Shown one piece after another: positions 18,620 through 20,033 of a stretch of DNA of 64,000 nucleotides. Both the position numbers and the translations under genes were made by a program. The stretch's first letter is position 1; every line of letters starts with the position of its first letter. This stretch comes from Bacilli bacterium. Lineage in GTDB: Bacteria; Bacillota_I; Bacilli_A; MAG-NZ. The stretch lies in contig JAGYLA010000002.1 of NCBI GenBank assembly GCA_018401215.1, positions 9,880-73,879 of the forward strand, read 5' to 3'. The notes below the pieces were generated by a model. It was not told the origin of the DNA. It was given only the letters and a program-made list of their open reading frames with translations, and made no database searches.

Positions 18620-18642
18620 GAAAAAAGAACCTTTCGGTTCTT
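18620..18642 (-). terminator. Rho-independent terminator closing the large-ORF/ankyrin/cdaA operon
   Basis: Minus sense reads AAGAACC-GAAA-GGTTCTT followed by TTTTC. Overlaps the cdaA stop codon. Confidence 0.6.
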
Positions 18643-19423
18643 ATTGGGTGGTTCCTAGAAGATTACTAAGGGTAATTCCAAGTGAGTCTTTGTTCAAATT
18701 TCGATCTAAAATTCCGTCATATGCTAAGGAGACTTGACCGGTTTCTTCAGAGACAACGATGGTCACTGAATCACGAACTTGAGCGAGTCCAAGTGCTGCT
18801 CGGTGTCTTGAGCCTAACGTTTTATCCACGACACCATCTGCGAAGTTATAAAATGCTCCCGCACAGGCAATGCGACCATTTTTGATAATAATGGCACCGT
18901 CATGCGTTGGTGCCTTTGTATTAAAAATTGCTTGCAGCAGTTCAATCGTCACTTCAGAATCAAGAACAATCGAATCTGCGATGATGTCTTCAAGTGACGA
19001 TTCGCGCTCAAAGGTAATTAAGGCGCCCGTTTTTTTATTGCGTAATATTTCCACTGCGTTAGTAATGGTTTTGATCAATTGTGCATCACGATTCAAATCT
19101 TCAGCCCGGTTTGTTGTTTCCCATGGATTGTCCCCCAAGTAACGAATCACATCATAGGACAAGACAACAACCACCAACAAAATCCACATCGCTTCGATTT
19201 GCAATAAAACCCAACCAAACAACGGAAGCGGGGTGATGGAGTTTACTAAAAATAATAACGACCCTAATACCACAAAGATGAAACGTAGGAACGCTCGCTG
19301 ATTACGGCGGATTGCTAAGAAAAATAAACTCAAGAAAATTCCACTAAATATTAATTCCAAACCCCAGGAATACCACGGGTTTTGGGTAAAGTAATCTTGA
19401 ATGATTTGAGAAATATTATTCAT
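18641..19423 (-). CDS. cdaA: Membrane-bound diadenylate cyclase (c-di-AMP synthase) CdaA
   Basis: 260 aa with three N-terminal TM helices and a DAC domain: [28 protein letters not shown] and [13 protein letters not shown]. Confidence 0.9.
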
Positions 19424-20033
19424 AGTTGAACTCTTTCAATAATTGGAGTAGTGATGCATCGTTCCTTGTTTCTATTAAACCACAAACACTAGCGCCATCA
19501 TAGTCCTCAATCATCGGGTTTGCGCCGGCGACAAGTAACAAGCGGATTGCGGCTTCATCCGATTGATGAGTTGCATAATGCAATGGGGTTTGGCCATTTT
19601 CATCTGCCATGTCAATAGCTGCTCCCGCATCAATCAATAATGACGCAATCAAATGACGACGATGTTCAATCGCATAATGAAGTGGGGTTTGTTCAAACGA
19701 AGCGCTTGCGTTGACGTCTGCTCCAAGTAAAAGTAACGAACGAACGGCAATTTGCTTGTTGCGAAGAACTGCATAATGCAAAGGACTCTCCCCGGTTTGA
19801 CTCGCAATATCGATATTGACTCCATGTTCAACAAACATATGAATCAATTCGGCATCATCATAGCGCACCGCCAAATGAAGCAATGTATGGTCTTTGTATT
19901 CTTGCGTGTTTACATCAACATCTTCTTGCGGTAGCAATTTTATCAATTCTTGTTTGATGAAGTTTGGGTTGTTTTTATGTTCACGAACAAGGCGAAAGAA
20001 GTTTCTTGTTTTTGATTTGTTTGTTCGTTTCAT
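19416..20033 (-). CDS. Ankyrin-repeat protein (four ANK repeats, no signal peptide)
   Basis: 205 aa. Repeats TLLHLAVRYDDAELIHMFVEHGVNID, SPLHYAVLRNKQIAVRSLLLLGADVN, TPLHYAIEHRRHLIASLLIDAGAAID and TPLHYATHQSDEAAIRLLLVAGANP. ATGA overlap with the upstream ORF and 8-nt overlap with cdaA. Confidence 0.85.
   Translation of the reverse strand: MKRTNKSKTRNFFRLVREHKNNPNFIKQELIKLLPQEDVDVNTQEYKDHTLLHLAVRYDDAELIHMFVEHGVNIDIASQTGESPLHYAVLRNKQIAVRSLLLLGADVNASASFEQTPLHYAIEHRRHLIASLLIDAGAAIDMADENGQTPLHYATHQSDEAAIRLLLVAGANPMIEDYDGASVCGLIETRNDASLLQLLKEFNYE

Follow-up and report, generated by a model that had tools for sequence, protein, structure and literature searches.

A conserved gene module of a predicted pseudo-helicase, an ankyrin-repeat protein and the diadenylate cyclase CdaA in Izemoplasmatales and related Mycoplasmatota

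A 64-kb stretch of the genome of a Bacilli bacterium (GenBank assembly GCA_018401215.1, contig JAGYLA010000002.1), hereafter called the window, carries on its reverse strand a module of three genes: a large open reading frame (ORF), the gene for a small ankyrin-repeat protein (ank, Ank) and cdaA, which encodes a CdaA-type diadenylate cyclase, the enzyme that makes cyclic di-adenosine monophosphate (c-di-AMP). In relatives, every Ank ortholog recovered likewise lies between the large gene and cdaA (18 loci, about nine lineages). The reading that we tentatively prefer, and regard as quite possible, is that the three genes constitute one transcription unit whose products act together at the membrane, with Ank as an adaptor that modulates oligomerization of the cyclase. 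Under this reading, a single mRNA would yield the three proteins in a fixed ratio, and they would assemble at the membrane; the ANK solenoid would bind the cytoplasmic DAC domain of CdaA, the large protein or both; binding of Ank would decide whether DAC dimers form active head-to-head oligomers, as GlmM does in walled Bacillota; and the large protein, devoid of ATPase motifs, would now serve as a scaffold or sensor. Through such a complex, a clade without the cdaR-glmM arrangement would control c-di-AMP synthesis from the cytoplasm. That the products bind each other, and that the cyclase is affected by this, is what we infer. The module and the elements that bound it are as follows.

20030-24031, reverse strand: large ORF, 1333 amino acids (aa), from the ORF list
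19416-20033, reverse strand: ank, 205 aa, from the ORF list and Pfam
18641-19423, reverse strand: cdaA, 260 aa, CdaA-type diadenylate cyclase, from the ORF list and Pfam DAC
18642-18621, reverse strand: intrinsic terminator, AAGAACC-GAAA-GGTTCTT followed by a T-run, read from the sequence
24032-24224, reverse strand: AT-rich divergent intergenic region of 193 bp between the large ORF and the class II ribonucleotide reductase (RNR) gene, read from the sequence
24225-26738, forward strand: class II RNR gene, from the ORF list
18226-18616, reverse strand: separate downstream unit consisting of an extended -10 element and mgsA, which bounds the module and lies outside it, from the sequence and NCBIfam

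The large ORF and ank overlap by 4 nt in an ATGA junction (20030-20033), ank and cdaA overlap by 8 nt (19416-19423), and the terminator hairpin, with a 7-bp stem and a GAAA loop, begins inside the TAA stop codon of cdaA. The next gene, mgsA (18226-18585; NCBIfam 176 bits against a cut-off of 84), is preceded by the extended -10 element TGGTATAAT at 18616-18608. The promoter of the module presumably lies in the 193-bp intergenic region, where a putative -10 hexamer, TATAAT, can be read at 24052-24047. The two overlaps, the rho-independent terminator on the cdaA stop codon and the separate mgsA promoter had all been reported in a preliminary description of the window and are present in the sequence as described; the three-gene unit proposed there agrees with the intergenic region on the promoter side and the terminator on the other, and we infer that the large ORF, ank and cdaA are co-transcribed as a single unit. 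Within the 64-kb window there is no gene for YbbR/CdaR, GlmM, a phosphodiesterase, a second DAC protein or a second ANK protein, in line with the earlier statement that this cdaA has no neighboring cdaR or glmM. A scan of the window with Rfam yielded no family reaching its gathering threshold, and hence no c-di-AMP riboswitch nearby. The surroundings form a housekeeping region near dnaA, with ligA, pcrA, tsaD, pgi, ispDF, the class II RNR gene, ftsH, pyrG, dnaX, mnmE and yidC, and the GC content of the module (0.40) equals that of its surroundings. A search of a viral collection found no relative of the large protein and, for ANK, generic matches alone; together with the host-like GC content this indicates that the module is not a recent acquisition.

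The 18 loci retrieved represent Izemoplasmatales and other Mycoplasmatota. Closest to the window are L001 (an Izemoplasmatales metagenome-assembled genome, MAG) and L002 (a Bacillota MAG; genome-collection scan with CdaA), which share its gene order, with a large ORF of 1328 aa, Ank of 201 aa, CdaA of 258 aa and mgsA, and are identical to it at 74% of positions in CdaA, 64-65% in Ank and 51% in the large protein. In the list of CdaA homologs, a gap separates the clade of the window (at least 72% identity) from the next relatives (~40%), and L004-L006 are three complete Mycoplasmatota genomes (WC44 and others), called WC44-like here. The large-Ank-cdaA trio is found in the window clade (L001, L002, L014), L004-L006, L007/L015, L008/L016, L010 and L011/L017/L018, and is retained down to 33-35% identity in CdaA. 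The more distant loci are organized as follows.

L004-L006, L007 and L008: large protein of 1330-1359 aa, Ank of 203 aa, CdaA of 257-258 aa
L010 and L011 (CdaA 35% identical to that of the window in global alignments): large protein of 1437-1439 aa, Ank of 190-192 aa, CdaA of 266 aa
L009 and L012: large protein of 1408-1436 aa with cdaA directly next to it, Ank absent, CdaA of 265-267 aa
L013: large protein absent, cdaA directly after the divergent RNR gene, Ank absent, CdaA of 246 aa

The pattern is thus nested, with cdaA alone in L013, the large gene and cdaA in L009 and L012, and all three genes in the rest. The large-ank junction always overlaps, by 4-17 nt, and ank and cdaA are spaced by -8 to +14 nt. 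A hairpin with a T-run directly 3' of cdaA is also seen in L004, L005, L007, L008, L009 and L011, and the divergent arrangement of RNR gene and module recurs in L007, L008 and L011. A metagenome scan with an Ank alignment returned five loci, three of which duplicate known ones; all five have the large gene upstream and cdaA immediately downstream. No cdaR, glmM or second DAC gene was found within +/-8 kb of cdaA in 11 related loci. Conservation of the ank-cdaA pairing in relatives had been named beforehand as one test of a regulatory link, and the pairing is conserved at all Ank loci, in about nine lineages. The module is probably inherited vertically and constitutes a new, unpublished operon variant with CdaA.

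The Ank protein matches the Pfam families PF00023, in four stretches (E 3e-26, 90.3 bits against a cut-off of 21.1), and Ank_2, PF12796 (E 1.5e-26, 93.2 bits against 27.3), and its N-terminal ~45 and C-terminal ~25 residues look by eye like degenerate capping repeats; the whole protein appears to be an ANK solenoid with no other domain, presumed to act as a protein-protein adaptor. Its hydropathy peaks at 1.25 over 19-residue windows, below the level typical of transmembrane (TM) segments, which indicates a cytoplasmic protein with neither a signal peptide nor a TM segment; Pfam and hydropathy thereby uphold the original picture of a 205-aa protein with four ANK repeats and no signal peptide. 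Searches with Pfam and NCBIfam revealed no homology to YbbR or phosphoglucosamine mutase in Ank, which is matched by ANK families alone, or in the large protein, so that any resemblance of the two to CdaR or GlmM would be a functional analogy.

The orthologous 203-aa proteins align to the window Ank without any gap, the orthologs score above the Pfam ankyrin thresholds as the window protein does, and the Ank proteins of L010 and L011 are 34-38% identical to it. An exact look-up of the window Ank sequence found no record, and a word-indexed homolog search with it gave generic ANK proteins alone, at no more than 36% identity, and missed the true orthologs; likewise, the precomputed Pfam field is empty ('-') for the 203-aa Ank genes of L004-L008 despite their ANK match at E ~1e-27 in a direct Pfam scan. 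Missing matches in these two sources are therefore not to be trusted. Two proteins of ~220 aa aligned over their full length (P0116 and P0102) were considered as orthologs and rejected, as their genomic surroundings are unrelated and contain no DAC gene; generic ANK proteins of this size class likewise occur in unrelated surroundings. The best NCBIfam matches of Ank are Dot/Icm effectors (AnkY, 92 bits; AnkH, 74 bits), which would fit an effector secreted to act on a eukaryotic host, as the Ank proteins of Legionella and Coxiella do. These matches, however, involve the repeats only and fall far below the cut-offs of 450-1400 bits, the protein has no signal peptide or TM segment, its gene is embedded in a housekeeping operon and the lineage is free-living in sediment (PMC8397711), all of which makes a host-directed role extremely improbable.

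The cyclase of the window matches the DAC domain, PF02457 (E 2.4e-35, 121 bits), its HDGA, GSRHRAA and SEETG motifs are intact and invariant across the CdaA alignment, and its best matches in the Protein Data Bank (PDB) are the catalytic domains of CdaA/DacA (E 3e-32). The hydrophobic N-terminus, residues 19-97, would form ~3 TM helices, judging by hydropathy. The protein scores below the NCBIfam equivalog cut-off of TIGR00159 (159.8 against 188.8 bits) and below those of CdaM (91.5 against 225), CdaS (116.2 against 225) and DisA (29.6 against 201). Pfam gives no match to CdaA_N (PF19293), and in the precomputed lists PF19293 is missing from the module-type CdaAs and present in classical ones; the N-terminal domain of the window CdaA thus seems divergent from CdaA_N. 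In Bacillus subtilis, Arg126 of CdaA (R126) is essential for binding of and inhibition by GlmM (PMC8573169). The equivalent column (residue ~131 of the window CdaA, about 19031-19033, reverse strand) holds Lys in the window and L001 and Asp or Glu in L004-L008, whereas L009-L012 keep Arg and L013 has His; the residue is suggestive for the WC44-like clade and ambiguous for the window.

Almost all relatives have, after mgsA or immediately after cdaA, a gene of ~515 aa for a membrane protein with PAS and degenerate GGDEF domains; in L001 (11195-12742) this gene is intact. Its counterpart in the window (16749-18217, reverse strand) is a pseudogene, which tblastn aligns over the full length at 26-32% identity; it is interrupted by numerous in-frame stop codons and by one frameshift or more, and ORFs of 121 aa and 90 aa (17852-18217 and 17222-17494) are its fragments. 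Because the gene directly follows cdaA in L012 and L013, it could itself be a CdaA-linked partner.

The large protein of the window has no match in Pfam, NCBIfam or PADLOC, and its family is small, comprising 15 clusters among 5.8 billion proteins and 9 representatives in 1.84 billion in an exhaustive HMMER scan. It is connected to its distant relatives by a chain of homology, from the window to L004 (E 5e-92, end to end) and from L004 to L010 (E 3e-14). Orthologs match DEAD (E 7e-9), DUF4011 below threshold (E 0.006, 16.9 bits against a cut-off of 22.2), the PADLOC profile PDC-S37 (E 1e-16 to 1e-20) and the NCBIfam families ProA (E 1e-9 to 1e-16, at most 58 bits against a cut-off of 1500) and Hhe (E 6.5e-7, 27 bits against 2000), and the window protein itself retains an N-terminal DUF4011-like motif, KRPFLLIPVVL. 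A first AlphaFold2 (AF2) model, built on a shallow alignment, was discarded (mean predicted local distance difference test score, pLDDT, 45.5), and its Foldseek matches to hydroxyacyl-CoA dehydrogenases (TM-score < 0.3) are meaningless. A second model, built with more diverse sequences, reached a pLDDT of 78.7 and matched UPF1, Aquarius, Dna2, IGHMBP2, Sen1 and SLFN11 in Foldseek with probabilities of 0.99-1.0, although with modest E-values (1e-3 to 5e-2) and low TM-scores. The low TM-scores are due to an all-helical insertion of ~650 residues that splits RecA1, and its all-helical nature also accounts for low-probability matches to SMC/MukB. A profile search of the PDB with the large protein gave nothing usable, and a single-sequence search with that of L010 found SMUBP-2 alone (E 0.05). 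According to the model, the large protein, which is predicted to be cytoplasmic and non-catalytic, is a derivative of Upf1-like superfamily 1B (SF1B) helicases with two RecA-like domains.

The sites of the Walker A and B motifs fall at residues ~228-236 (about 23324-23350, reverse strand) and ~1033-1041 (about 20909-20935, reverse strand). In the alignment, the proteins of L009 and L010 have Walker A as G(Y/R)xGTGKT and Walker B as IIDDAH, those of the WC44-like clade have QGTRKI and DGAE in these regions, and those of the window clade have YQHEVES (ATYQHEVES in the window) and DGIE (VVIVDGIER). The ATPase motifs thus appear to have been lost stepwise, being intact in the deepest lineages and erased in the clade of the window, while the length of the protein and purifying selection on it (ratio of nonsynonymous to synonymous substitution rates, dN/dS, 0.054) have been maintained despite the loss. 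The label of pseudo-helicase that the preliminary description had given to this protein is thereby given substance, both by the Upf1-like SF1B fold and by the erasure of Walker A and B relative to distant orthologs.

Its C-terminus, residues ~1255-1320 (about 20072-20269, reverse strand), is a conserved alpha/beta domain (PYDIVVSK..IDLVIHLMVND..ILDEA) which by eye resembles a degenerate restriction-endonuclease fold of the Vsr/DUF559 type without catalytic residues; such a C-terminus would fit an Hhe-like helicase-nuclease ancestry. Several relatives carry a ClpA/ClpB-like AAA+ gene of 584-641 aa (Clp_N, AAA and AAA_lid_9) immediately 5' of the large gene and in the same orientation; the window, L007, L008 and L011 do not have it, their divergent neighbor being the RNR gene. 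The positions of the AAA+ gene are as follows.

L004, 1314-3239: ClpA/ClpB-like AAA+ gene
L005/L006, 1293-3218: ClpA/ClpB-like AAA+ gene
L010, 1322-3076: ClpA/ClpB-like AAA+ gene
L012, 1802-3628: ClpA/ClpB-like AAA+ gene

The matches of the large-protein orthologs to PDC-S37, ProA and Hhe, and that of Ank to the candidate-defense profile PDC-M72A, made via its repeats (E 1.6e-26), raise the question of whether the large protein, alone or together with Ank, is what is left of an anti-phage helicase system of the DUF4011/Hhe/ProA/PDC-S37 kind and neighbors cdaA by chance. We consider this very unlikely, since all scores are far under the family cut-offs (58 against 1500 bits for ProA) and the window protein matches nothing, the module occupies a fixed site in the core genome beside housekeeping genes in every lineage and has host-like GC content, it has no viral or mobile relatives, and strong purifying selection persists although the ATPase motifs are gone. 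Defense genes, moreover, are normally patchy and island-like in their distribution.

Between L001 and L002, the dN/dS values of ank, cdaA and the large gene are 0.070, 0.047 and 0.054, respectively (the value for cdaA of L001 and L014 was left out as an out-of-frame artefact); all three are real genes under strong purifying selection. Between the window and the WC44-like clade, identity is 44-50% in Ank, 38-41% in the whole of CdaA, 47-51% in its DAC part, 21-30% in its TM part and 21-23% in the large protein. Ank is thus constrained as tightly as the DAC domain.

The main competing explanation is that Ank and the large protein serve a process unrelated to c-di-AMP, for example scaffolding of RNA, DNA or protein as a legacy of a Upf1-like helicase ancestor, and that cdaA is co-transcribed with them for historical reasons, ank and the large gene having been inserted once between cdaA and its promoter. 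It is a serious possibility, to us only slightly less likely than the reading that we prefer. The nesting of Ank within the distribution of the large protein, with cdaA alone in L013 and accompanied only by the large gene in L009 and L012, speaks for it, as does the always overlapping large-ank junction beside the looser one between ank and cdaA, and adjacency comes cheaply where synteny is region-wide and overlaps are ubiquitous. Yet the gene order, including the terminator after cdaA, has been kept over very deep divergence, the large protein has never been separated from cdaA while ~80% of its residues changed, and the rate of change of Ank follows that of the DAC domain and not that of the large protein.

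Several observations weigh against the proposed control complex and have to be set beside the conservation of the trio. Retention of the large gene and cdaA without ank in L009 and L012 means that Ank is dispensable for whatever links the large protein and CdaA, and, as Ank never occurs without the large protein and the large protein does occur without Ank, Ank may have the large protein, and not CdaA, as its primary partner. Among the homologs from the Ank and CdaA searches there was no ANK-DAC fusion, and the presence of Ank does not correlate with the GlmM-contact residue, which is Arg in L009-L012 with or without Ank. Adjacency itself carries less information than it may seem to. Of the 51 same-strand neighboring ORF pairs in the window, 29 (57%) overlap and 35 are spaced by no more than 15 nt, in a longest-ORF gene set that somewhat inflates overlaps; the overlapping or close pairs include unrelated genes, such as those for the S1-domain protein and pgi, or for 5-formyltetrahydrofolate cyclo-ligase and ispD. 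The genome is therefore very compact, overlaps are ordinary in it, and the coupling of ank to cdaA as such says little, the weight being carried by conservation across lineages. This conservation is in turn tempered by the synteny, in all lineages, of a region of ~15 kb from the RNR gene to pgi/tsaE, functionally unrelated genes included; the whole-region synteny and the commonness of overlaps make the neighborhood evidence weaker than it appears, and the conserved adjacency may partly be inertia. What the comparison reveals is roughly a single acquisition of the large gene and a single acquisition, or alternatively a single loss, of ank, followed by long retention, with no independent recurrences.

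The missing cdaR and glmM likewise do not single out Ank. Izemoplasmatales are wall-less, as seen by transmission electron microscopy of the cultured strain zrk13 (PMC8397711), and complete loss of peptidoglycan has been predicted for them (PMC10868615). A cdaA without cdaR or glmM neighbors is also found in the Ank-less relatives, namely L009 and L012, with the large gene and cdaA, and L013, with cdaA alone, and the module-type CdaAs of the sampled members of the wider clade have no recognizable CdaA_N, with or without Ank. The absence of cdaR and glmM therefore appears to characterize the clade as a whole, most of which is wall-less, and either to predate Ank or to be unconnected with it, and Ank is not simply their replacement. 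Of the preliminary proposal that Ank is an alternative regulator of the cyclase, the conserved pairing and the constraint on Ank speak in favor, while the argument from the loss of cdaR and glmM does not hold specifically for Ank. A more far-reaching version, in which the helicase-derived protein, Ank and CdaA form a membrane sensing complex in which the helicase-derived scaffold reads a cue from the cytoplasm, such as nucleic-acid or nucleotide status, and passes it on to c-di-AMP synthesis, in place of the envelope-linked control by CdaR and GlmM in walled Bacillota, seems unlikely to us. We are just as doubtful of its extension, that this complex amounts to a DisA-RadA counterpart built on CdaA, which evolved in Izemoplasmatales and related Mycoplasmatota at first with an active ATPase and later with a pseudo-enzyme.

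Elsewhere in the window, which lies next to dnaA (62059-63477), there is no tRNA gene, and four ORFs have no Pfam match at the thresholds used. The position of the one of 185 aa matches that of an unannotated gene of ~183-211 aa after an RDD-family gene in relatives.

7410-8792, reverse strand: ORF of 460 aa
53711-54658, reverse strand: ORF of 315 aa
14483-15040, reverse strand: ORF of 185 aa
26728-27237, forward strand: ORF of 169 aa

Since c-di-AMP is essential and toxic in excess, its synthesis needs tight control. To our knowledge, CdaR and GlmM, both tied to the envelope, are the only well-understood controllers of CdaA, and we know of no description of how CdaA is controlled in the wall-less descendants of Bacillota. 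Full-text searches of the literature found no paper in which ankyrin proteins are connected with diadenylate cyclases or with the synthesis of c-di-AMP, and none on c-di-AMP in Izemoplasma. The module, found in marine, wall-less bacteria, is a concrete candidate for a new regulatory input on CdaA, and, if the favored reading is true, Ank would be among the few bacterial ankyrin proteins with a housekeeping and not a host-directed role.

In Bacillota, cdaA forms an operon with cdaR and glmM, and GlmM is a cytoplasmic inhibitor of CdaA/DacA (PMC8573169, PMC6368335). The module resembles this operon in that accessory proteins are encoded together with a membrane-bound CdaA that has ~3 TM helices and a DAC domain, and the action proposed for Ank, to attach to the DAC domain and keep active oligomers from forming, would be analogous to that of GlmM. 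It differs in that the accessory genes lie upstream and not downstream of cdaA, and in that the partners are an ANK solenoid and an SF1B derivative, unrelated in sequence and fold to a YbbR-domain protein and phosphoglucosamine mutase; in addition, the window CdaA has no Pfam CdaA_N, the GlmM-contact Arg126 is replaced by Lys, and regulation within the module is hypothetical. CdaM of Mycoplasma pneumoniae, the Mollicute cyclase, is also a DAC enzyme of a wall-less descendant of Bacillota without cdaR and glmM partners, but the window CdaA scores only 91.5 against the CdaM cut-off of 225 and has an N-terminus of ~3 TM helices, as in CdaA.

DisA, a DNA-linked diadenylate cyclase, is controlled by the DNA-repair ATPase RadA/Sms. 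There, too, the DAC enzyme has a partner from a nucleic-acid motor family, and by analogy such a pairing suggests that c-di-AMP synthesis may be coupled to nucleic-acid status; in the window, however, the cyclase is a CdaA-type membrane enzyme and its partner is not RadA but a predicted Upf1-like SF1B protein without ATPase motifs. The katB-ankB pair of Pseudomonas aeruginosa, in which a small ankyrin protein is co-transcribed with an enzyme, catalase, and is needed for its full activity, offers a precedent for a short bacterial ANK protein that shares an operon with an enzyme and acts on this enzyme and not on a eukaryotic host, although AnkB is exported or membrane-anchored and has catalase as its partner, whereas the window Ank is cytoplasmic and would have a nucleotide cyclase. 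With the DUF4011/Upf1-like SF1B helicases, finally, the large protein shares the two RecA-like domains, an insertion that splits RecA1, an N-terminal motif of the PxLLxPV type and the profile matches of its orthologs; it departs from them in that the window protein lacks Walker A and the DE of Walker B, the scores are subthreshold, and the large gene is part of the core genome, linked to cdaA and without recognizable nuclease motifs. The module also exemplifies how an SF1B helicase appears to have turned, step by step, into a scaffold that is conserved but no longer catalytic.

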